Notes: generated from the sequence alone by a model not told the origin. A DNA stretch of 64,000 bases from Nitrososphaeria archaeon (GCA_050011875.1 JBEKIG010000013.1:12394-76393), one strand, 5' to 3'. Positions 1,178-64,000 are shown, counted from the first letter of the stretch. Made by a program: numbers and translations.

Positions 1178-1951
1178 TTATTGTGTACCAACTACGTTGA
1201 CCGTTGTCTTTATCGTAAGGTTTTCGCCTGTAACTCCGATTATTAGTGTGTACGTTCCAGGTGTTATGTTTACGTTAAAATGTGTGTCTGTTGCTGCTTG
1301 CCAGTAGAGAGTACCTATCTGTCCCTGAAGACCAGGCTGAGGCGTTTGGGTCGAGTGCCCAAGCTGATACGCTAACCCCTTGACCTGCTGGTTTTGGGAA
1401 TTAAAAACATCCAACTCCACGTACGAGGCGTTGACCTCCTGTGCCCCTGTCAGATTGAAGCGTACCCCAAGGTAACCGTTAGGATTCACAGACGTACCTG
1501 AAAGTGTAACCTCCAGTTTCAGCCCTGAGGTTTCGTTGGTCAGCGTTGGACCGAGGAACTCGGCGGGTGGCGAAGTTGTAGTGGTCGTCGAAGTAGTCGT
1601 GGATGAAGGGGTTGGAGTTGAGCCGTAAACATAGGGCAGAACCATTACGGTTGCTATCACGAGAACCGCCAGTACTATTACGACCGTGAGAATTATTGCA
1701 TTTTTTGAGTTTTTCTTGTTACCAATAAGAACAAACTCGTAAGCGGACAGGGAGCCGAAGGTTAGAGTAAGCACTACAAAAGTAGCCAACAACACGTTTA
1801 GATTTATAGGGGACATAATGCTTGGGTTCTTTATACTTGGGTTCTTTAGGTGTTGAATTAGAGAGAATTCAGAGAATGATATGGAGTCGAATATTATCGT
1901 CAACACTGCAAAGGTCACCAACAACATGTTTCTTGTCTTCGAAGATGGCAT
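1178..1951 (-). CDS. Membrane-anchored surface protein with Thr linker and C-terminal Ig-like domain
   Basis: Three N-terminal hydrophobic segments (first two are an internal repeat), a TTTSTTTTTS stalk and a beta-rich C-terminus ending ITPGTYTL. It lies 4 bp downstream of the wHTH gene. Confidence 0.65.
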   Translation of the reverse strand: MPSSKTRNMLLVTFAVLTIIFDSISFSEFSLIQHLKNPSIKNPSIMSPINLNVLLATFVVLTLTFGSLSAYEFVLIGNKKNSKNAIILTVVIVLAVLVIATVMVLPYVYGSTPTPSSTTTSTTTTTSPPAEFLGPTLTNETSGLKLEVTLSGTSVNPNGYLGVRFNLTGAQEVNASYVELDVFNSQNQQVKGLAYQLGHSTQTPQPGLQGQIGTLYWQAATDTHFNVNITPGTYTLIIGVTGENLTIKTTVNVVGTQ

Positions 1952-1955
1952 TATC

Positions 1956-2378
1956 TTACATCTTCTTCAGCGCTCTAATCACTTCATACAGTGATGTTGC
2001 AACCCCTACCAAGCACACCGCTAAAGCGAAACCATATGTGGACGTTATCTGAGGCGGCCTCAGATAGGTTAACAGAATCAGAAATGCTACAGCGAAGAAC
2101 GCCATGTACGCCGTCTGGAATGGTATAAGCGTCCTCCTCACCCTGACTATGTTCTCAAAAACAACCTTATCCACCACATAGCCTTTGTCCTGTTCTCTGA
2201 TGAGCCCAGCCTCGAGAAGCTTGTTGACGTGATATGATGCAACGGACGAGGAGCCGAACCCAAGGCCCTCCTGCACGCCACTGATACCTACAGGCTTTCC
2301 CTCCTTGAATATGAAACGGTAAACTCTGAGAGTAGTACCCCTCAAAACCTTTGCTTCATCCTCTTCCTTCGCAGCCAA
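1956..2378 (-). CDS. Membrane-tethered winged-helix transcriptional regulator (copy 1)
   Basis: N-terminal wHTH (GTTLRVY...VQEGLGFGSSSVASYHVNKLLEAGLI) plus two C-terminal TM helices. Close paralog at 43616-44038. Confidence 0.8.
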   Translation of the reverse strand: MAAKEEDEAKVLRGTTLRVYRFIFKEGKPVGISGVQEGLGFGSSSVASYHVNKLLEAGLIREQDKGYVVDKVVFENIVRVRRTLIPFQTAYMAFFAVAFLILLTYLRPPQITSTYGFALAVCLVGVATSLYEVIRALKKM

Positions 2379-2425: not shown

Positions 2426-2499
2426 TTCTAAAATTAGAAGAACGCTTTCTAAAATTAGAAAACTGCGCTTTCCCGTCTTTCTATTAATAGCGCTATATC
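2426..2499 (+). promoter_or_regulatory. Operator array and TATA-like box, module 1
   Basis: TTCTAAAATTAGAA at 2426-2439 and 2447-2460, TTCTATTAATAGCG at 2479-2492, CTATATC at 2493-2499. Confidence 0.8.
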
Positions 2500-2529: not shown

Positions 2530-3363
2530 ATGTCGGAATATAAAAGGCAGATAGTTGTAGGAGTTTTCGTAGCTGCTGTAATAGCGTTGGTTCTAGCAGG
2601 AGGAGCAATCTACCTCCTTCCACTGCAACCCATGCGGACGACATCCACAACACTTATCACTCCTACAACTACAGCTACAGGCACAGCTACAACAACTGCT
2701 ACAGGAACTTACAGTAGTACATCTACGTTTGGTGGTTCACCTACTACTACACCGTCAACTTCGTCTGGTACGACGATTACTCTCGGTCCCCCTTATACAT
2801 CTGTTACAACTATTACTACTGCAGGTACGACTACACCTATTACAATTACGTTCACTCCTACGATTACATCTATTACATCTACAGCTGGAACAGCTACTAC
2901 AAGTGGTTCTACGACTATAACGTCCGGACCTACTGTAACTGTTACTGTGACAGAAATATTAGGTACTGTGGTATCGCCTGGAACTACTGAAACAGTTACT
3001 GTGACAGAACAAGTTGGCACTGCGACTGAGACCGTGACAACAACTGAGACACAAGGTTTAACGACAACTGTAACATCAACCACAACAGTAACAAGTGTAG
3101 GAGGGCTTGAAATAACAAACGCCTATGCTAATAGCACGACTCAGGTGGTTGTAAGCGTCATGAACACAGGGAGCACAGACCAGACCATTACAGGCATACT
3201 CGTAAACGGAAAATCTCTTTCAAGCGTGAACGGTGGCACTTCAAACCCAAGCCTACCTATCAAGGTGGCAGCGAATGCATCGCTAACCATCAACCTAACC
3301 TTCAGCTCTCCACTATCATCGAACACAATATATTTCGTAACAATTCAAACCAGCACAAGTTGA
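2530..3363 (+). CDS. Thr-rich stalked surface protein with C-terminal archaeal pilin/Ig-like domain (copy 1)
   Basis: MSEYKRQI plus TM anchor, long Thr/Ser low-complexity region, C-terminal NTGSTDQTITGILVNG domain. Paralog at 44171-44848. Confidence 0.75.
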   Translation: MSEYKRQIVVGVFVAAVIALVLAGGAIYLLPLQPMRTTSTTLITPTTTATGTATTTATGTYSSTSTFGGSPTTTPSTSSGTTITLGPPYTSVTTITTAGTTTPITITFTPTITSITSTAGTATTSGSTTITSGPTVTVTVTEILGTVVSPGTTETVTVTEQVGTATETVTTTETQGLTTTVTSTTTVTSVGGLEITNAYANSTTQVVVSVMNTGSTDQTITGILVNGKSLSSVNGGTSNPSLPIKVAANASLTINLTFSSPLSSNTIYFVTIQTSTS

Positions 3364-4292
3364 TCCAAAGGAGTAATGATACGATCAAACAATCGGTCGA
3401 TAAAAGCTCCTATAAGATAGCTTTTGTCGCCCTTATAGTTACAGCTGCAGTTGTTGGAAGTACTATCTACTCTAACCCAACATTATTCAAAAGTTCAACA
3501 ATCACTTCAACAATGACTACAACGACAACGAAAACTCAGTATATAACTACCGATAAGAATGTGTATAATGTTGGTGATACTTGTCATTGGACGGCAACAG
3601 GTCTGATTTCAGGCACAACCTATTCGATTTACTGGTCTGAATATTTTTCAAACTCCCAAAGTTACTACTCTCTTAGCACTTGGAATGCTACCTCATCTTC
3701 GATGATAGGTACTTTTACTGTTACAAACGACATGCAAGGAGGCGGAGATCTAATATTAAACGAAGGTTATGGAGCTTCTCCAGACGCAAACATCGTTATT
3801 TGGATTAACTCGCTATCATCAACAACTTCTATATCTACCATTCCGATAACAACTACAACAGGAACAACTACTTCTAATATTACTTCCGGAACCAATACTA
3901 CGACAACCGTAATTTCAGTGCTGAATGTGTCCAGCTTAATCTCATCCGATGAATCGTTAAACGCTGTGATGGAGTTCCAGGGATGGAACGCTACCCAAAT
4001 GGCATCCTATGGAGTTTATACACAGCTTAGATACCTGAAAGAAGAAAATGGATGGCTCAACATATACACGGTCGACCCTAATACGACTAAAATATTGAGT
4101 TTGGAAGCGAGCGAATCTCTTCAGATTCCTGACCCCACAGTAAAACTGCCGGGGTACTTTTGGTTCATAGACATTAACGCAGATGTAAAAACAGTTGCAC
4201 CAGGCAACTTTCCAGAGGCAGGTACATATTACGACTTCTGGGTAGACGCCGTTAACGCCACAGTAGTGTACTCAGAAGGGCCGGTCCCGTAG
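3360..4292 (+). CDS. Membrane-anchored surface protein with two beta-rich domains and Thr linkers
   Basis: TTG start overlaps the upstream stop. TM helix, Thr tracts and many N-x-S/T sequons. Confidence 0.65.
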   Translation: MIQRSNDTIKQSVDKSSYKIAFVALIVTAAVVGSTIYSNPTLFKSSTITSTMTTTTTKTQYITTDKNVYNVGDTCHWTATGLISGTTYSIYWSEYFSNSQSYYSLSTWNATSSSMIGTFTVTNDMQGGGDLILNEGYGASPDANIVIWINSLSSTTSISTIPITTTTGTTTSNITSGTNTTTTVISVLNVSSLISSDESLNAVMEFQGWNATQMASYGVYTQLRYLKEENGWLNIYTVDPNTTKILSLEASESLQIPDPTVKLPGYFWFIDINADVKTVAPGNFPEAGTYYDFWVDAVNATVVYSEGPVP

Positions 4293-5144: not shown

Positions 5145-5446
5145 AGAAGCCTGCAATTTAAAACGCCTGGAGGCGACCTAATGAACTTCCACTCATCTTG
5201 TGCATCAGACGGAATATCTTATGCTGTGCTTGGTAGAGATACGATATTTTTGAAATATGATGTGACATTTAGAGAACATATGGAACAAATTGTTTTTAAA
5301 TCTTGTAAGACAAATGAAAATACATTTAATCGCAGTGTTTTTAAAAGGAAATGAAACGTTAAATTTGTTGTTCGACAATTAAATCCTAAAAGAAACCTAA
5401 CCGATGCAGGAAAAAGCAGGACGATTGAGGGATGCGGAAGGTTAAC

Positions 5447-5947
5447 TCAAGGATTGCCAACATTCCGCCGTGATGACATCCTCTTGGCGATCCACCTAAT
5501 GAGTAGCATGGACGCTCCCATGAACAGCGAAATAAAAGATCCCTGCCCTATGGAGTAGCCAAGAGACTGGCCAAGGTAAAGGTATGAAACCACTCCGAAA
5601 GAAATGAAGGCAGATATCATCCAGATCAGGATGAACACGTTGGAGATGGAGTTGGCGACCCCAGTCTTCCTCTGACCCGCTTGGTCTCTAGCAGCTGCAC
5701 TCGTCTCTATGATTCGGACCGCCACCAAGGCTTCCTTCCCTTCATCGGAAAGCCGATAGTTCCCTTCAGGATCGAGGACAATCAACCCTTCCAGTTTCTT
5801 CAGGTGGTAGTCCAGGTTGCCGCTGCTTGAGATTCCCAGCTTATTCTTCAGCTTTCCAAAGCTCAGGGGAGTGGACTCAAGAACTTCCAGAACCCTGATT
5901 CGCGTAGGATGAGCGATCTTCTCAAAGAGCTCGGCTGAGCTGGACAT
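5447..5947 (-). CDS. ArsR-like wHTH regulator with two C-terminal TM helices
   Basis: LFEKIAHPTRIRVL...GISSSGNLDYHLKKL...YRLSDEG followed by two hydrophobic helices. Confidence 0.8.
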   Translation of the reverse strand: MSSSAELFEKIAHPTRIRVLEVLESTPLSFGKLKNKLGISSSGNLDYHLKKLEGLIVLDPEGNYRLSDEGKEALVAVRIIETSAAARDQAGQRKTGVANSISNVFILIWMISAFISFGVVSYLYLGQSLGYSIGQGSFISLFMGASMLLIRWIAKRMSSRRNVGNP

Positions 5948-11636: not shown

Positions 11637-13337
11637 TTGCGCATAAATGTTGCAACCAAGGTAGTCGCAATGGATACACCTGACAGTAAACATTTAACAT
11701 ATCGGTTTAATGTTTCAATTAACAAAGATGTATTAGTATATGTTGTGTTTATTGTCCTCTTGATTCTAAATATTTGGGTGTTTCTGGAAGCTAACTACCT
11801 ATCTTTTTTGCAAAAAAATCAACCCTACGACTTTTATAGCATATTAAGGGCTTCAAGTCAGGTCTGGACAAAACCAAATGATGTGTATGTCTTCTGGAAT
11901 ACGGTACAGTTACCTTCTTTCTGGCAGAAATGGTGTTGGTCCGGATCGGATTATGCATACACTCCGATGTTCGCTGCATTATTATCCCCTTTATCCGCAC
12001 TGTTCCCTACAAGTGCAAAAATTATTTGGGAAGTCATTTCATTATTTGCCGTCACAATCGCTGGATTCATATCCTTAAAGATGTTTAAGGGCTTTAAAAC
12101 TAGACTATTTTTTCTATTAATGATCTTCATAATGCCCTTCCAACTTCTCTATTTTGGACAGGCCATATCACAGTACCCTTTGTTACCGCAGAATTTGGCT
12201 ATGACGATATCCCCTGTTTACTTTACAGAATATTTTTGGGGGGATACGAATGTCCTGATCCTTTTATTTGGACTTCTATCCATTTGGTGTTCAACTTTCA
12301 GTACGGTAAAGATCCCCTTTCTGGGAAAGATCAGGAATAACGAATGGCAGGTGCCTGGCTATGTCCTCAGTTCATTATTTCTGGCGTTAGGGTCATTCCA
12401 GGCAACGGTGTTGCTTTTTTATTTTCCCTTCTGGTTGCTATTAAACTGGTTTATATTAAACAGAAAAAATTTGATAAAGGCCATCGCATACTTTGCCGCT
12501 TTCGTGGTCATGCTTAACTTCATAATATTTATTCACCCAACACTTTTTTCTGGTTATGCGAACAGTTTCACAGAACTGTTTAATTATTTAATCAATTACC
12601 GTTATGCAAACCTCTATTCTTTTGCCACTGCTTCAGGGCCTTCTTTGCAAGATTTCATCAGAAACAACATCTACAGTTATGTTTGGATATTCACCCTCCC
12701 TTTAGCAAGTATATTCACTCTATGGAATAACAGAAAGGGTGGAATACGGTTAAAGCCGTATAGCATCTTAGGGGCAACCCTTTTCTCAGCCGGCTTCGGG
12801 CTTTCGGCGTATATATTCACCGTTGTGCAGATACTTAATTCTTATCCTTTCTACCCCTCTCTTTCCCCCGATATATTCGGGGGAGATCTAGTATCCAAAA
12901 GTTTACCTTTAACACTTACCCAAACATTAGAAGTCGGTGTTGTCTTGGCATCCGTCGGTCTTTTCATTTGGAAGGCTTCATCTTTGGGAAAGCTTAACGG
13001 TGGCGCCATCCTTTGCGCTTTTGGCTTCACATTGCTCGTCATAGGGGCTATGGGAGCAGCTATCGTTTACACTGAAATTCATCTCGTTTGGGGAGAACTT
13101 TGGCTCGGATTCACCGTATGGAAGTTTTGGTGGAGCCTCCCTGCTGGTGGTGGGGGTTGGCCTTGGGGTACGTGGCGTGTGGCTTATAACACCTGTTTTA
13201 TCAAAGCCTGGAATTTTACTGAGGCAGATCCCAACTGTATCTTTATGAATTACAATGATGTGCTGTACATTTCTATCCTGATGGTGATCATCGGTTTTAT
13301 CCTCTTTAGGCACTATGCCCGAAATAGAAAAAGCTAG
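11637..13337 (+). CDS. GT-C fold (GT87/DUF2029-like) glycosyltransferase with an extra C-terminal membrane domain
   Basis: YDF...YAYTPMFAALLSPL lumenal-loop motif and many TM helices. True start may be ATG 11670. Confidence 0.6.
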   Translation: MRINVATKVVAMDTPDSKHLTYRFNVSINKDVLVYVVFIVLLILNIWVFLEANYLSFLQKNQPYDFYSILRASSQVWTKPNDVYVFWNTVQLPSFWQKWCWSGSDYAYTPMFAALLSPLSALFPTSAKIIWEVISLFAVTIAGFISLKMFKGFKTRLFFLLMIFIMPFQLLYFGQAISQYPLLPQNLAMTISPVYFTEYFWGDTNVLILLFGLLSIWCSTFSTVKIPFLGKIRNNEWQVPGYVLSSLFLALGSFQATVLLFYFPFWLLLNWFILNRKNLIKAIAYFAAFVVMLNFIIFIHPTLFSGYANSFTELFNYLINYRYANLYSFATASGPSLQDFIRNNIYSYVWIFTLPLASIFTLWNNRKGGIRLKPYSILGATLFSAGFGLSAYIFTVVQILNSYPFYPSLSPDIFGGDLVSKSLPLTLTQTLEVGVVLASVGLFIWKASSLGKLNGGAILCAFGFTLLVIGAMGAAIVYTEIHLVWGELWLGFTVWKFWWSLPAGGGGWPWGTWRVAYNTCFIKAWNFTEADPNCIFMNYNDVLYISILMVIIGFILFRHYARNRKS

Positions 13338-43615: not shown

Positions 43616-44038
43616 CTATACTTTCCTTAACGCTCTTGTAACTTCGTATAATGAGGTCGCAAGTCCGACAAAGATCACCGTTAAAGAGAAGGCATAGGTG
43701 GACGTTATTTCAGGTGGTCTCAGGTAGGTCAGCAGGATCAGGAATGCCAGTAAGAAGAATATGGCGTACGTGGTCTGTAAGGGTATAAGCGTCCTTCTCA
43801 CCCTGATCACATTTTCGAACATCACCCTGTCTACGACGTAGCCTTCATCCTGTTGCCTGATGAGGCCCGCGTCAAGGAGCTTGCTGATATGGTATGATGC
43901 GAGTGAGGATGTGCTAAATCCGAGGCCCCGTTGCACGTCATGGACGCCAATGGGCTTCCCCTCCTTGAACATAAAGCGATAGACCTTGAGAGTAGTGCCC
44001 TTCAATACGTCTGCTTCAGCCTTTTCCGCTGTACTCAA
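43616..44038 (-). CDS. Membrane-tethered winged-helix transcriptional regulator (copy 2)
   Basis: Highly similar to 1956-2378 (FENVIRVRRTLIP, LLTYLRPPEITSTY). Confidence 0.8.
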   Translation of the reverse strand: MSTAEKAEADVLKGTTLKVYRFMFKEGKPIGVHDVQRGLGFSTSSLASYHISKLLDAGLIRQQDEGYVVDRVMFENVIRVRRTLIPLQTTYAIFFLLAFLILLTYLRPPEITSTYAFSLTVIFVGLATSLYEVTRALRKV

Positions 44039-44086
44039 AGTCTTTCCAACATTGATGGACCAGCATTCAATTTAAACCTTACTCCA

Positions 44087-44139
44087 TTCTAAAATTAGAA
44101 CACAGTCTTCCATCATCAATCTAAAATTAGTACTATATC
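44087..44139 (+). promoter_or_regulatory. Operator pair and TATA-like box, module 2
   Basis: TTCTAAAATTAGAA at 44087-44100, ATCTAAAATTAGTA at 44119-44132, CTATATC at 44133-44139. Confidence 0.8.
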
Positions 44140-44170
44140 GTTGCTCACCTTTACCTTAAGCCGTGGAAAA

Positions 44171-44848
44171 ATGTCAGAATATAAGAAGCAGATCGCTGCA
44201 GGAGCTTTGACGGCTGTCGTGATAGCGTTAATTTTGGCAGGTGGAGCAAGCTATCTTTTCCCACTTCAGCCCACGCAGACGACCTCCACAATAATTAACC
44301 ATTCCTCTGCAGCTGCAGCCACAGCGTCTACCACTAAGGCTACAAGCGCTGCTATTACATCTATACCTCAGACAACGTCGTCAGGAACTACCTTCACGAC
44401 GTCTACGACATATTTAGGCACTACGACAACGATATATTTACCTCCGACCATGACTCTACCCACTAATAATGGCACTACGATAATTACAAACGGCACTATG
44501 ACATATACAATAACTCCTCCTATCACCACGGTGACTACGACAATTGGACCGATTGTAACTGTAACCGTGACCCAAAACCTCATAAAAGATATTGAGATAA
44601 CATACGTGAACTTCAACGCCAGCATCCCAACTCATGTGTTCGTAGGCGTCAAGAACGCCGGCACCACGGACCAGACCGTCACAGAAGTACTCGTAAACGG
44701 AATACCGTTATCAAGCGTGAACGGAGGTACATCAAATCCAAGCCTGCCCATTACAATAGCAGCAGGTAGATCACAGGAGATCACCCTAACCTTCAGCTCG
44801 CCACTGCCATCAGGAACATACTTCATAACAATTCTCCCCGGTGATTGA
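44171..44848 (+). CDS. Thr-rich stalked surface protein with pilin/Ig-like C-domain (copy 2)
   Basis: MSEYKKQI start. Shares LSSVNGGTSNPSLPI and LTFSSPL with 2530-3363. Confidence 0.75.
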   Translation: MSEYKKQIAAGALTAVVIALILAGGASYLFPLQPTQTTSTIINHSSAAAATASTTKATSAAITSIPQTTSSGTTFTTSTTYLGTTTTIYLPPTMTLPTNNGTTIITNGTMTYTITPPITTVTTTIGPIVTVTVTQNLIKDIEITYVNFNASIPTHVFVGVKNAGTTDQTVTEVLVNGIPLSSVNGGTSNPSLPITIAAGRSQEITLTFSSPLPSGTYFITILPGD

Positions 44849-45776
44849 TACGCATCAGAATCTATTGGAAGGAGCCGTGCCGAAGGCTCAGGTTGTTTTG
44901 TTATTGGCCATACTTTTGGTTGGAGCAGTCGGCGCCTACTATGTTGTACAGGAAGAACTGCCAAAGAATAGTAACCCTTTGACTACTACTTCGACCTCGG
45001 GCACATCAACGTCCGCTCCGGTAGACGCAGGCCCGCTAACCGTAGTTTCAGTTAGTCTTCTTCGGCCCTATAACCCGGGTGGACCGACAATTGAAGTCAT
45101 CCTGCAGAACAAGGCAAACAACCCAGTGGTTAGCCTTCAAACGGTATTGTCATTATCGGGACGCAACTACACGTACGTTTTCGACGACGTTTCTTCAAGC
45201 AATCCGCTGTTGACCAATCAGGACGCATCTCAGACAGCCACTCTGATCGGTCCTGCCGGATTTGAAACAAATCAAACGTACCCGATGGAGATACGAGGCA
45301 CTCTGCAAAATGGATCCTTGTTCGATTACGTAACTCCTGTGACAATAGCCCAATACTCCAATCAGCTCGTGGCGTCCGGAGGAAACGGCAATCTCCAACT
45401 TACCATGGTCCTCGGAAAAACCGTGTACAGTTTAGGCGAACCTGTTAACCTAACTTTGACCATCACCAACATCAGCAATCAGACAATAAACTTTATGCAC
45501 TCAGGATTGGATTTTGATTTTCGAGTTTACAACGGCACAAACAACGTCGTGTACCAGTGGTCAAATTTCAGAGGCATCGCTCAATTCATAATGATCGTGC
45601 CGCTTCACGCCGGAGAGAGCAGGTCGGCCAACTTCACTTGGCTGCAGACATGCAATTTCAACGCCTCAGTTGAAGGAGACCCAGTCTCACCAGGGACCTA
45701 CAACATAATTGGCCAAACTGGCTCAGTGTACGGTTTACAGACGACGCCGATACAACTCACAATCGTCAACCCTTAG
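44841..45776 (+). CDS. Membrane-anchored surface protein with a C-terminal BsuPI-like (proteinase-inhibitor) Ig domain
   Basis: YSLGEPVNLTLTITN...FDFRV...VYQWS...AGES...W.Q...PGTY pattern. Confidence 0.65.
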   Translation: MIDTHQNLLEGAVPKAQVVLLLAILLVGAVGAYYVVQEELPKNSNPLTTTSTSGTSTSAPVDAGPLTVVSVSLLRPYNPGGPTIEVILQNKANNPVVSLQTVLSLSGRNYTYVFDDVSSSNPLLTNQDASQTATLIGPAGFETNQTYPMEIRGTLQNGSLFDYVTPVTIAQYSNQLVASGGNGNLQLTMVLGKTVYSLGEPVNLTLTITNISNQTINFMHSGLDFDFRVYNGTNNVVYQWSNFRGIAQFIMIVPLHAGESRSANFTWLQTCNFNASVEGDPVSPGTYNIIGQTGSVYGLQTTPIQLTIVNP

Positions 45777-46290: not shown

Positions 46291-49200
46291 CTATGATGTC
46301 TTTGGATGGTCGATTCGGACCCGGTCATGCTTACCTGCTTTCCGCCTCGGCAATACAACCCTCCAAAGGATTACGATTACCGCTAAGATAACCGCTAAGA
46401 TAATAACTATCAAAATGGACGTGTAAACCCAGTTTATCGAGAAGCTTGCCTGCACGCTCTCAGCAGAGTTCACCACAACACTAACTTCAGTTTCGCTTGA
46501 AGACGTTGCACCAGACCAGCCGTCAAACTTGAACAGGAAAAACGCAGGACTAGCTGCAAGCTGAACAGTCGAACCCAAAGGCACAAACAGCGTCCTATTA
46601 CTCGCACCACCCACCTTACCAGCAAGCGAGGCAGAGCTGTAGGAAACACTTCCGAAACTCGAAGAAACAACAGAGAGACCAGGATAGAACGCTGCGCTTT
46701 CAACGATAGGATCCTTGACCGTAACAGTGAACGGATTACTCACCCCCCCATACGAGCCGACCCCTGAACCGTTCCATAACTCGAACTGCCAACCACCATT
46801 TGAAGCAGCAGAAAGCTGAACCTGCTCACTGGAATTAAACCAATCCGTCAAAGGAGACACGAAACCACCCTGCTGGCTGTTGGAAAGGACCTTAACATAA
46901 TACTGGTGGTAGTAGAAAGGAGACAAGACGACGGCCGAGCTCACCGAACCTGTGGTTGCCTGCGCAAGGACCGACCATCTCTCGTTCGAAGAAGCATAAG
47001 CAACGCTTGCAAAACTAAACGTACTGCCCGAGTCTGCCCAAGCTGTCCCCTGCGTGACACCAATCAGTGAAGTCGACGGCGATCCAAGCGAAGAGAAGTT
47101 CAACTCCAAAGAACCTGGGTTCCCCCCGCCGGATACGCTGTAGCTATAAACAATGGTGTACTGGTGATAGTAGACAAGGGTCATTGAAACAGCTGCGTTC
47201 ACACTGCCGGAGCTAGAGCTATTGGTGTACCAACGCTCAGATGAGCCAGACCCCTGAAGAGGATTCGGCAAGCTGAATGAAGTGCCTGCGTCAAGCCAAT
47301 TGGAACTTAGGGTCGCGTTTATCGGAAAAGCCGCTGACACTCCGAAAGCTGTCCCCGACAACAACGGAGAAGTAGGATTCCCGCCACCATTGATGACATA
47401 TCCTACTGAGATGTCGAATTGGTGGTAGTATTGGAAGGTCGCGGTGGTAGGTCCCGAGACAGCCCCTGCGTCGGTCTGAGACGTAATCCACCTTTCAGAT
47501 GAATTAGAGCTGGAGAGAGGGTTAGTGACCGACCAAGATGAACCATAATCAAACCAGTAGGCTGTAGGTATGCTCGTTATGGTAGGCGAAAACGCCACAC
47601 CATTCTGCAAACCTGACAACAGCGGAACGGCCGGCGAACCACCTCCAGACACAGAATACGCCAGAGTCCAAGCTACCTGAAAGTAATACGGAACAACTAC
47701 CACAGACCCAGAAACAGTTCCCGACGTTTCGTTAGTGGCCATCCACCTTGTGTTTGAATTCGACCCTGATAGCAAGCCTGTGAACGAATAGGATGAACTC
47801 GCGTCTGTCCAGTCAGTGAAATTCGCCACCCCTTGGGATTGTGATCCGAACTTGGTGTAGGAGACGGTCGGAGCCGTGTAGCCCGACTGATTAGAGTTCA
47901 TAATGTTGAAGCCAAACAGAACGTAGTACTGGTCATAGTATGTGAAAAGAACGGACTGGGCGGCGGAAACGGTTCCTGAGGTCACATCCTGAGTGTACCA
48001 TCTCTGCACGCTACTCGACCTCTGTAAGGGGTTTGAAACAGACCAGAGCTGTCCGACGTCGGACCAATAGGCCGTGGGTGAGCCGGAAAGGCTAACAGCA
48101 GCCGCCGAGCCGAACTGGGTTAGGGCAAGGCTGGGCGCAGTAGGACCTCTTCCCCCCACTGTCGTATAGCCGGAAGTCAACCTGTACTGGTGGTAGTATG
48201 TCGCAGAAAACAACGTACTAGAGTTAACCATGCCAGTCGGAGACTTAGTGGCCCACCGTTCGTTTACGTACGATCCGGGCAACGGATTCTGAAAGGAATA
48301 CAATGAGCCGGCGTCCACGAAGGCCAAGAAACCGGGCGTAATGGATACAGATGACCCGAATTCGCTGACATTCATGCTTGGCTGTGAGTAACCGCTGCCA
48401 CCGTTTGCGACAGCATAGAGGAAGGATACGCGAAACTGGTGGAAATATACGAAGTTCAACGTTGTACCGTTCGTGGGAGCAGTGCCGCTAGTTTTATTTT
48501 GTGTGTCCCAGATCTCTATCGAAGTTGAGCCCTGTAACAGGCCGTTCACGCTCCACGGAGATCCGCTGTCCATGTAGTAGGTGGTAGAATTAGTGGAAAG
48601 CTGGATGATGTGCTGAATCCCGCCGGAATAGTAGATGAAGAATGGTGGAGAATATCCACTTCCACCACCTTGAACTGAATAATTTACGTTAACTGTGGCA
48701 GGACTATATCCTGTGATAAACAGATACGAGTCAGAAGCCTCCGTGGCGTTATGGGATGATAGGTACTGCAATGTTTTCGGAACCGTGTAGACGACAGGAC
48801 CACTCGTGGAAGCCACGAACAACGTTTGGCCAGTGCTCGGCACCCATTCCTCCATCCACATCCAGGCGGAGGATTTTGCGAAGTCGTTTTCCCAATAGGT
48901 GACATTTGCCTCTTCTCCGTAATAGGCGGAGGAGTGCCACCATTCCGTCATAAGCCCGGTGAAGAAACCGTTACTGTTTTCTGGCGATGAAGCTAAGCCC
49001 ACGAAAACGGAAGAGCCCTCCTGGTTGAACATCTTTACGGCCCCTGCCCCCGTGTTATAATCATATGCTTGCATCACGACGTTGCCGCCAGAAAAGAAAA
49101 GGTTAAGGAGGACTGTATCCCCCTGTTTCACGGTCCCTGAGAAGGACGATAGTCCGACTCCGCTTGCTGGGTAGATTGAATTACCACTTGGGTCAAAGAC

Positions 49201-49767
49201 TTCGTAATTCATGCTAAAGCCCGATGCGTAGCCGCCAACCAGATTAGGCCAATGCCAAGAAAGGCCCACCTGATACCAATACCCCGTATCAGTAAGGCCA
49301 TCCAGATCGTAGCCCGGTCCGTATCCGTTGCTGTCCGACTGAGCCACAGCGGTGACGTTGTAGGCCATACTTGTGAAGTTCTGGGTGAAAGTTAACCCCA
49401 GCTGCTCGTCGTAAATCGCGGATGGTTGATTCTCAACCGGGTAATCCTGGTTGTTTACAGTAGACAGCTCCAAACCAGCCAATCGATGGCCTTGCGATTG
49501 ACCCGCCGGAGAATCAGAGCTGAAAGATTCTGGTACGTTTTGACGACACAACGAGCAAGAGTAAGATCCATCCGAACCCAGTCCAGTTGAAATGTTAACA
49601 CCACCTGAAGAGGGATTAATGACGGAGGAAGTTGCTCCAAAAACGCCAACATGAGGCGCTGTCCAACCAAGAGCGACAAGCATTACAATTAACAGAATGC
49701 AGAAACCTAATCCCTTGGTAATCCTTCGAACTGGGCAACCATGAATCTTAATCAAAGCCAGTTTCAA
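46291..49767 (-). CDS. Large repeat-containing cell-surface protein
   Basis: N-terminal hydrophobic signal, globular domain, seven repeats of about 85 aa ending YYHQY-like, two InlB-B-repeat-like domains, C-terminal TM and basic tail. Confidence 0.75.
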   Translation of the reverse strand: MKLALIKIHGCPVRRITKGLGFCILLIVMLVALGWTAPHVGVFGATSSVINPSSGGVNISTGLGSDGSYSCSLCRQNVPESFSSDSPAGQSQGHRLAGLELSTVNNQDYPVENQPSAIYDEQLGLTFTQNFTSMAYNVTAVAQSDSNGYGPGYDLDGLTDTGYWYQVGLSWHWPNLVGGYASGFSMNYEVFDPSGNSIYPASGVGLSSFSGTVKQGDTVLLNLFFSGGNVVMQAYDYNTGAGAVKMFNQEGSSVFVGLASSPENSNGFFTGLMTEWWHSSAYYGEEANVTYWENDFAKSSAWMWMEEWVPSTGQTLFVASTSGPVVYTVPKTLQYLSSHNATEASDSYLFITGYSPATVNVNYSVQGGGSGYSPPFFIYYSGGIQHIIQLSTNSTTYYMDSGSPWSVNGLLQGSTSIEIWDTQNKTSGTAPTNGTTLNFVYFHQFRVSFLYAVANGGSGYSQPSMNVSEFGSSVSITPGFLAFVDAGSLYSFQNPLPGSYVNERWATKSPTGMVNSSTLFSATYYHQYRLTSGYTTVGGRGPTAPSLALTQFGSAAAVSLSGSPTAYWSDVGQLWSVSNPLQRSSSVQRWYTQDVTSGTVSAAQSVLFTYYDQYYVLFGFNIMNSNQSGYTAPTVSYTKFGSQSQGVANFTDWTDASSSYSFTGLLSGSNSNTRWMATNETSGTVSGSVVVVPYYFQVAWTLAYSVSGGGSPAVPLLSGLQNGVAFSPTITSIPTAYWFDYGSSWSVTNPLSSSNSSERWITSQTDAGAVSGPTTATFQYYHQFDISVGYVINGGGNPTSPLLSGTAFGVSAAFPINATLSSNWLDAGTSFSLPNPLQGSGSSERWYTNSSSSGSVNAAVSMTLVYYHQYTIVYSYSVSGGGNPGSLELNFSSLGSPSTSLIGVTQGTAWADSGSTFSFASVAYASSNERWSVLAQATTGSVSSAVVLSPFYYHQYYVKVLSNSQQGGFVSPLTDWFNSSEQVQLSAASNGGWQFELWNGSGVGSYGGVSNPFTVTVKDPIVESAAFYPGLSVVSSSFGSVSYSSASLAGKVGGASNRTLFVPLGSTVQLAASPAFFLFKFDGWSGATSSSETEVSVVVNSAESVQASFSINWVYTSILIVIILAVILAVIVILWRVVLPRRKAGKHDRVRIDHPKTS

Positions 49768-63903: not shown

Positions 63904-63956
63904 TTCAAAAATTAGAACAGCAGATCTTCCCCTAATTCTAAGAATAGCACTATATC
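63904..63956 (+). promoter_or_regulatory. Third copy of the operator-pair/TATA promoter
   Basis: TTCAAAAATTAGAA at 63904-63917, TTCTAAGAATAGCA at 63936-63949, CTATATC at 63950-63956. An ATG at 63980 runs off the window. Confidence 0.7.
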
Positions 63957-64000
63957 TATACTCCACCTTGCCTAAGGCCATGCAGAAGATAAAGACAAGG

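Follow-up and report, generated by a model that had tools for sequence, protein, structure and literature searches.

Results

The locus and its features

The window analysed here is the whole 64,000-nt stretch of DNA from an uncultured member of the Nitrososphaeria, positions 12394–76393 of contig C13 in a genome (G000) of 2.64 Mb, 119 contigs and 40.8% G+C. Three loci in the window, L1, L2 and L3, carry a promoter layout that runs in the order strong palindrome, 18 bp, weaker palindrome, CTATATC. The features are listed below; wHTH stands for winged helix-turn-helix, and bit scores come from the promoter matrix introduced further on.

1178..1951, minus strand: gene for an anchored, Thr-rich protein of 257 aa, 4 nt downstream of the L1 regulator gene
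1956..2378, minus strand: L1 regulator gene, 140 aa, N-terminal wHTH and two C-terminal hydrophobic helices
2408..2415, minus strand: TATA of the L1 regulator, CTTAATAT, 6.9 bits, 10 nt after the site and 37 nt before the TTG start
2426..2439, unstranded: putative distal operator copy 2 of L1, a perfect TTCTAAAATTAGAA 21 bp from copy 1
2447..2460, unstranded: putative distal operator copy 1 of L1, perfect palindrome TTCTAAAATTAGAA
2461..2478, unstranded: spacer of L1, 18 bp, unconserved except among recent paralogs
2479..2492, unstranded: putative proximal operator of L1, the weaker TTCTATTAATAGCG, over the BRE position of the target promoter
2492..2499, plus strand: TATA-like 8-mer of the L1 target, GCTATATC, 5.9 bits, best matrix hit of the region, 38 nt before the ATG
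2530..3363, plus strand: L1 target gene, a 277-aa 'MSEYKRQ' protein with N-terminal membrane anchor, Thr/Ser-rich stalk and C-terminal domain
3360..4292, plus strand: second gene of the L1 target operon, 310 aa, anchored, Thr-rich, overlapping the first by 4 nt
43616..44038, minus strand: L2 regulator paralog, 140 aa, 71% identical to the L1 regulator
44069..44076, minus strand: TATA of the L2 regulator, TTTAAATT, 9.3 bits, 10 nt after the site
44087..44100, unstranded: putative distal operator of L2, a perfect match
44119..44132, unstranded: putative proximal operator of L2, ATCTAAAATTAGTA
44132..44139, plus strand: TATA-like element of L2, ACTATATC, 1.3 bits, below the genome's lower quartile, 39 nt before the start
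44171..44848, plus strand: L2 target gene, a 225-aa MSEYKKQ protein
63904..63917, unstranded: putative distal operator of L3, TTCAAAAATTAGAA
63936..63949, unstranded: putative proximal operator of L3, TTCTAAGAATAGCA
63949..63956, plus strand: TATA-like element of L3, ACTATATC, 3.3 bits, 32 nt before the start
63981..64000, plus strand: first 20 nt of the L3 target gene (MQKIKTR...), which runs off the contig end

The CTATATC words occupy 2493–2499, 44133–44139 and 63950–63956. The initial annotation had described these strings at all three loci, and each of them is present in the window base for base; the paired sites start 32 bp apart at L1, L2 and L3, and the additional perfect site that it had placed 21 bp upstream at L1 is there. 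When the window alone was searched with loose patterns, 27 14-mers with at most three mismatches were found where 19.3 are expected, and a second loose count gave 11 matches against 7.6 expected, neither of which is significant. Because such loose matches occur at the level of chance, the case rests on the near-perfect copies and on the layout in which they stand.

The composite layout recurs in the genome

In the 2.64-Mb genome the exact 14-mer is present in 14 copies, whereas about 0.1 would be expected from base composition, and allowing one mismatch raises the count to 27, as compared with 4 for the reversed control. We defined a composite as a distal site with at most one mismatch, 18 bp, a proximal site with at most five mismatches and [CA]TATATC, and scored both 14-mers at fixed offsets from all 5538 TATAT[CT] anchors. 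Ten anchors are composites, the next-best anchor has 5+5 mismatches, and the resulting table is cleanly bimodal. The loci are thus more than three in number, with instances on contigs C1, C2, C10 (two), C11, C13 (L1, L2 and L3), C16 and C3; the one on C3 is L3's 119-nt sequence at another contig end, which leaves nine distinct promoters. This is the genome scan for a pair at 32-bp spacing that the initial annotation had suggested, and all 10 composites precede start codons by 11–34 nt, as counted from CTATATC to the first in-frame start found by our script (24–34 nt when counted to the MSEYK codons). Thus, the composite does not occur at a background frequency unrelated to gene starts, and we conclude that the site/18 bp/site/CTATATC layout is not the product of chance.

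Across the genome, TTCTA-N4-TAGAA with at most one outer mismatch matched 236 times and its reversed control 349 times, so that loose counts of this kind are uninformative, and five of the eight solitary one-mismatch sites lie inside ORFs and resemble background. A relaxed scan adds two likely members with variant layouts, each before an anchored-protein gene: at C4:176021 the palindrome is followed by 7 bp and TTCAAATTATAGTA-TTATCTC (a 21-bp offset), 24 nt before the gene for a SIMPL-domain anchored protein, and at C6:75149 a single site, TTCTAAATATAGAA-CTATAAT, precedes the gene for a 215-aa anchored protein. With a loose proximal pattern, 15 matches precede an ORF and 10 of these 15 ORFs have an N-terminal hydrophobic stretch, against 5 and 0 for the control.

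The end of the window touches a break in the assembly. The last 119 nt of C13 (63882–64000) are the reverse complement of the start of C3, and the two contigs differ upstream of them; the identical 119 nt cover the L3 promoter, both sites included, and 20 nt of the gene from its start, and the assembly breaks there. The L3 promoter-plus-gene cassette is therefore present in at least two genomic contexts.

The weaker site lies at the position of a BRE

We fitted a promoter matrix of 20 columns by EM to the 1321 upstream regions of this genome that have at least 90 nt of intergenic sequence. The words TTTATA, TAAATA and TATATA peak in these regions 40–26 nt before start codons, and the consensus consists of AA at -4/-3 followed by YTTAWATA, whose first base lies mostly 43–30 nt before the start codon. 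In all nine distinct composite promoters the best matrix hit is xCTATATC, the first base of which stands 32–46 nt before the start codon, as compared with a genomic TATA zone of about -43 to -30. The scores run from 1.0 to 5.9 bits, where the genome's best scores have a median of 5.15, a lower quartile of 1.87 and an upper quartile of 7.56, and a coding-sequence control has a median of -0.3. Six of the nine target promoters fall below the genome median and two of these below the lower quartile; the L1-type promoters score 5.4–5.9 bits, near the median, so not all target promoters are weak. The canonical BRE, AA at -4/-3, is absent from the target promoters, and the TA of the half-site TAG is found there instead. 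The initial annotation's placing of the weaker site at the BRE position of a suboptimal TATA is thus correct as to position.

The regulator promoters on the minus strand are of another kind, with CTTAATAY or TTTAAATT and the AA signature, at 6.9–9.3 bits. Their 8-mer starts 10 nt past the outermost distal site, and a canonical BRE lies between the two (at L1, the AA at 2418–2419). The distal site had been said to abut the regulator's own TATA. In the window's genus it adjoins the regulator's BRE and not its TATA, although the claim does hold for several distant relatives.

At L2 and L3 a block, CCTAARG, starts 22–23 nt after the first base of the TATA-like 8-mer (44154–44160 at L2, as CCTTAAG, and 63971–63977 at L3). 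It is found also on contigs C11 and C10 and at loci L069, L068 and L099, and is missing from L1-type promoters. The block keeps a fixed distance from the TATA and a variable one from the ATG, resembles a left half-site and would sit just upstream of the predicted transcription start.

The composites precede genes for surface proteins

The targets of all 10 composites are membrane-anchored or secreted proteins: seven are of the MSEYK kind, one is a different anchored protein, and the secreted protein of L3 accounts for two, being counted at both of its contig ends. The seven MSEYK/R-K/R-Q targets are built alike, with a membrane anchor at the N-terminus, a stalk rich in Thr/Ser and a domain at the C-terminus, and their anchor is specific to the family (MSEYK+QI, a membrane helix, then Y-L-x-P). 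The single anchored target outside this family is related to the protein of 3360–4292. For L3 the full-length gene is found in the sister genome, where both sites are kept before an ortholog that encodes a secreted protein of 389 aa, rich in Ser/Thr and anchored at its C-terminus. The 257-aa Thr-rich protein behind the L1 regulator gene is probably co-transcribed with it, and a relative of this protein on contig C10 has a composite promoter of its own. Searches of Pfam and NCBIfam returned no family for the 277-aa L1 target, and in NCBIfam the targets had no match above the cut-offs. A divergent gene for a 140-aa regulator lies upstream at five loci; at least five of the 10 composites in G000 have no neighbouring regulator gene, so this linkage is not obligatory.

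Several observations concern the surroundings of these genes. The gene that follows the L2 target (44841–45776) encodes a BsuPI (intracellular proteinase inhibitor) domain (E = 1.5e-12) and is unlike the second gene of the L1 operon. For residues 138–225 of the L2 target (44171–44848), the nearest structural neighbours of the predicted model in the Atlas are unnamed archaeal clusters at TM 0.45–0.52, one auto-named 'archaeal flagellin family' and one with some Pilin_N members, which may serve as a lead; the N-terminus of this protein has no small residue at the point where class III signal peptides are cleaved. On the minus strand, 46291–49767 encodes a repetitive membrane-anchored protein of 1158 aa for which Pfam gave no family with E <= 0.01. 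At locus L198 of the sister genome (G001:C5, about 5228–5400) the cassette has decayed, with some 39 nt instead of 18 between a perfect distal site and the proximal site, with ATC before the SEYK codons where other copies have ATG, and with a different anchored ORF following.

The linked regulator is a small predicted membrane protein with a wHTH

By hydropathy the hydrophobic stretches of the L1 regulator cover residues 87–108 and 111–134 of 140, and both helices are kept in alignments A1 and A3. The wHTH of about 80 aa passes directly into the first of them, with no sensor domain, and the predicted outer loop of the hairpin is short and near-invariant (L-R-P-x-x-x-T-S-T-Y). The protein therefore has a DNA-binding domain and predicted membrane segments in one polypeptide, as in the class of transmembrane transcription regulators (TTRs). 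Pfam HTH_20 (PF12840) scores 27.7 bits on residues 15–62 of the L1 regulator and 20.9 bits on the L2 paralog, with a cut-off of 27; the alignment to an ArsR structure in the PDB (6j0e) over residues 27–70 is weak at E = 0.18. A helix of the form S-S-x-S-V-A-x-Y-H-x-x-K-L is conserved in 92 aligned proteins.

The genome has five close regulator paralogs. Of 1.84 billion clusters, 732, 369 and 42 belong to this small family at E <= 1e-3, 1e-10 and 1e-30, respectively, and the best 150 of the 732 are mostly about 130–170 aa long, besides shorter fragments and a few longer proteins. NCBIfam held no named family for the regulator, the Atlas search gave sub-threshold leads, and our literature search found no description of this regulator family or its operator. 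The window also encodes a second kind of protein with a wHTH and membrane helices (5447–5947, minus strand, 166 aa; DUF7347 at 56 bits, plus HTH_20 and HTH_5), and the 300 nt upstream of this gene hold no inverted repeat.

The putative operator pair is conserved in relatives

The palindrome pair recurs across uncultured Nitrososphaeria. We collected 105 loci (80 from metagenomes, 13 from genomes and 12 from further named MAGs). From 104 of them a regulator of 90 aa or more could be translated, and clustering at 90% identity reduced these to 66 clusters. An automatic criterion found a palindrome and, after it, a TATA-like word in 49 of the 66, and about seven more were recognised by eye; among the remainder, about eight come from subclades that have a different neighbour and lack the sites, and two have too little sequence. 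In 29 of the 49 dereplicated loci a second palindrome lies 31–33.5 bp upstream, measured from centre to centre, where 500 shuffles of the upstream 90 nt gave a mean of 1.18 loci and a maximum of 6. The other recurrent centre distances, 21–22.5, 53 and 63.5 bp, are near multiples of 10.5. As a matter of geometry, then, the proposal that the sites would lie on one face of the DNA is supported. The spacers have diverged, as had been noted, with 0–0.5 bits per position across the 29 clusters; the half-sites carry about 0.7–2 bits per position, some of these positions having belonged to the selection criteria. Relatives at 45–65% protein identity keep the palindromes, their spacing and the TATA register, and their spacers are unrelated.

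The palindromes of distant relatives vary in length. Their proximal element is usually a 15-mer (5-5-5), and the distal one is a 14-mer or a 15-mer. The combinations of centre lengths among the 29 paired clusters number 13, 11 and 5, the 11 being a proximal centre of 5 nt with a distal centre of 4 nt.

The GTDB order of the window's genome comprises 10 species genomes. A close ortholog of the regulator (E <= 1e-25) is present in 6 of the 10, and the MSEYK anchor occurs in the same six, in five by search and in G002 by reading of the locus; the four genomes that have no regulator ortholog are 77–95% complete. An excess of near-perfect sites is seen only in the window's genus (27 and 18 against control counts of 4 and 3) and matches the 4–5 regulator paralogs of that genus; the other eight species genomes have such sites at control level. 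Outside the window's genus, both sites are kept in G002, G003 and G004, and G005 has a single perfect proximal site against CTATATC. The regulator gene of G003 is on another contig with no site upstream, and the MSEYF target gene of that genome keeps both sites; the sites follow the target gene. The autoregulation that the initial annotation had proposed is therefore not universal.

The distal sites of the paralogs in the window's genome form head-to-tail arrays of 1–4 copies with a 21-bp period, and their 7-bp linkers are identical inside an array and array-specific between paralogs. Copy number differs even between near-identical loci: the array at G000 C1:154431-154486 has three copies, and an otherwise identical metagenome locus (L096) has two. 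In their sequence the arrays look like the products of slippage in a slippage-prone tandem repeat. Tandem Repeats Finder, run on 2300–2600, did not report the two-copy 21-bp repeat, which was established by exact matching.

One half-site variant goes with a changed recognition helix

The half-site occurs in several variants, and we tracked TTCTA, TCCTA, TGCTA, TTCGA and ACCTA. The distal and proximal sites of a locus agree in 111 of 174 variable positions, whereas permutation gave a mean of 90.6 and a maximum of 106, and none of 5000 permutations reached 111. Because the variants track each other within loci, we infer that one factor reads both sites.

The TTCGA half-site is confined to five clusters (L153, L161, L168, L173 and L189), and it is in these clusters alone that the recognition helix begins not with the otherwise constant 'LSS' but with RT, GS, QN, QA and QA. 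In a quick tree, four of the TTCGA clusters form a clade with 95% support and the fifth is nearby, so the covariation of helix and half-site would represent one or two evolutionary events and is supportive, not decisive. For the TTCTA, TCCTA and TGCTA variants we sought a residue correlate and found no clean one. Four of the five clusters (L161, L168, L173 and L189) still have TAGAA as the half-site next to the TATA, with TCGAA in the other three halves, which suggests that the TATA-adjacent half-site is under extra constraint from the core promoter, beyond that from the regulator.

Taken together, linkage, co-occurrence and the one or two events in which half-site and recognition helix changed together make the adjacent 140-aa protein, a wHTH with two membrane helices, the likely binder of the palindrome. 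A single rigid dimer would then have to tolerate centres of both 4 nt and 5 nt, the situation of 11 of the 29 paired clusters.

Discussion

We think it reasonably probable that TTCTA-N4-TAGAA is the operator of the wHTH protein and that the phased pair serves cooperative loading, most likely for the activation of surface-protein genes. The regulator, an ArsR-like wHTH of about 80 aa with a two-helix membrane hairpin, would dock on the 14-bp palindrome. Each target promoter would offer it a distal site of high affinity and a proximal site that is deliberately weaker, and the right half of the latter ends one base before a weak TATA, which puts this site where the BRE, missing here, would be. 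Three helical turns separate the two sites, and the arrays grow by two turns (21 bp) with each extra distal copy; with such whole-turn spacings, bound dimers would face one side of the DNA and could occupy the weaker site cooperatively. A strong distal site, a weaker proximal site in 1-nt register with the TATA and the phasing of the two are what cooperative loading of the proximal site requires.

From the proximal site the regulator would most likely help TBP/TFB onto an intrinsically poor promoter and in this way turn on genes for membrane-anchored Thr-rich surface proteins. An activator that recruits TBP/TFB is plausible, and activation is favoured because the target core promoters are weak and have no BRE, the regulator promoter is strong and the closest analogue activates. 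The outermost distal copy, just upstream of the regulator's BRE, may feed back on the regulator gene, and at L1 such feedback would reach the surface-protein gene behind the regulator as well.

The same regulator could act through the same sites as a repressor, with dimers on the proximal site blocking TFB/TBP at the BRE and TATA and the surface-protein genes coming on only after the regulator is released, for example by a membrane signal. A site over the BRE position is a classic position for a repressor, and archaeal repressors such as those of the TrmB type occlude BRE and TATA; here the proximal site stops 1 nt short of the TATA-like box, and L1-type promoters, around the genome median in score, could fire unaided. 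On the other hand, the targets have no AA BRE and two of the nine lie below the lower quartile, and weak cores are expected of genes that depend on an activator. The 1-nt register of site and TATA is kept in distant lineages, and the TATA-adjacent half stays TAG although the other halves have changed to TCGAA, which suggests stereospecific cooperation over simple blocking. ArnR, the closest analogue, is moreover an activator. Repression is thus the rival that we take most seriously, but on this evidence we regard it as unlikely.

It is improbable that the palindromes are bound by another, unlinked factor, with the wHTH protein a mere co-regulated neighbour. Such a factor would account for the composites of G000 that have no adjacent regulator gene, and for G003, where the sites stand at the target gene with the wHTH gene on another contig; however, several regulator paralogs can serve unlinked sites in trans. 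The sites lie beside the divergent wHTH gene in 49 of the 66 clusters, the regulator and the target anchor occur in the same 6 of 10 genomes, and in the TTCGA clusters the recognition helix changed along with the half-site.

We give still less credence to an arrangement in which only the distal palindrome is an operator and the proximal element is a lineage-specific BRE-like signal with its TATA, recognised by the basal machinery or an alternative TFB. The right half and the TATA are indeed the best-kept parts, the left half often being degenerate (GGCAA, GTCAA, TGCCA, CACAA), the proximal centre is 5 nt against a distal 4 nt in 11 of 29 clusters, and TAG is kept beside the TATA even in the TTCGA clade. 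Yet the proximal element is a perfect palindrome in many lineages (TCCTAAAACGTAGGA; TTCTAAAATTAGAA in G005), its variable positions follow the distal ones, and it is unlike the genome's own BRE consensus. That the similarity is without regulatory meaning, left over from a recent duplication of a promoter-plus-gene cassette, we can practically dismiss: five L1-type loci are near-identical through the spacer and the excess of sites is confined to one genus (27 and 18 against 4 and 3), but L2, L3, C11 and C10b share the sites and not the spacers, and relatives at 45–65% identity keep palindromes, spacing and TATA register across unrelated spacers.

Returning to the favoured reading of cooperative loading and activation, one extension of it is speculative, and we would not expect it to prove right: the membrane hairpin may be the regulator's sensor, contacting the MSEYK anchor of its own product and so sensing the amount of surface protein, with the 21-bp arrays setting the gain for each paralogous cassette. 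If so, hairpin sensing would amount to a minimal product-sensing circuit, complete in itself, for the surface of the archaeal cell: the level of surface protein in the membrane would be fed back directly onto a phased operator pair.

To our knowledge, gene regulation is almost unexplored in those uncultured Nitrososphaeria of soil and peat that do not oxidise ammonia. The half-site, the spacing rules, the TATA register, a candidate binder and a set of targets together make a cis-regulatory code testable in this group. Its putative regulator would be about the smallest conceivable membrane-tethered transcription factor, and its targets would be the surface coat of the cell. The difference between weak, BRE-less target promoters and a strong regulator promoter predicts how an archaeal factor can replace a BRE, and strict phasing with arrays of variable copy number provides a natural series for studies of cooperativity at archaeal promoters.

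Among known systems, the winged-helix repressors of the ArsR/SmtB type, for which palindromic operators and dimer binding are typical, resemble the regulator through the weak wHTH alignments (HTH_20 and PDB 6j0e); they differ in that the protein described here has a membrane hairpin and is likely to activate at an archaeal TATA/BRE promoter. A regularly phased archaeal operator is reportedly found in the control region of Ss-LrpB, with three sites about two helical turns apart. That system is said to share with the present one several palindromes on one face of the DNA, cooperative occupation and autoregulation, whereas its protein reportedly belongs to another family, is soluble and has other targets.

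TTRs are described as common in archaea, at about four per archaeal genome (PMC10269533), and have, like the 140-aa regulator, a DNA-binding domain and membrane segments in a single polypeptide. That census appears to give no operators or targets for its archaeal members, its main text has no mention of ArsR, HTH_20 or Thaumarchaeota, and its supplements may list the regulator family (PMC10269533).

The closest parallel is with ArnR/ArnR1 of Sulfolobus acidocaldarius, described as membrane-bound one-component regulators with an HTH, HAMP and sensor domains and two C-terminal membrane helices (PMC6396743). According to the same account, the ArnR boxes are two 15-bp inverted repeats, TCGAC-N5-GTCGA, between -43 and -84 of flaB and upstream of the BRE, both are needed for binding, and ArnR activates flaB, which belongs to a surface structure (PMC6396743). 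The 140-aa regulator likewise has an N-terminal HTH and two C-terminal membrane helices, and here too paired inverted repeats stand upstream of the target promoter, the targets are at the cell surface and one genome has several paralogs. The two systems differ in the HAMP and sensor domains, which ArnR has and the 140-aa regulator has not; in the half-site, TCGAC as against TTCTA; in the position of the boxes, which in ArnR's case are upstream of the BRE, whereas here the proximal box lies over the BRE position and touches the TATA; and in lineage, the Sulfolobales of the Thermoproteota as against the Nitrososphaeria. From these comparisons we conclude that the phased operator pair is real and conserved and that, by analogy of layout and operators, the minimal membrane-anchored regulator family is ArnR-like.
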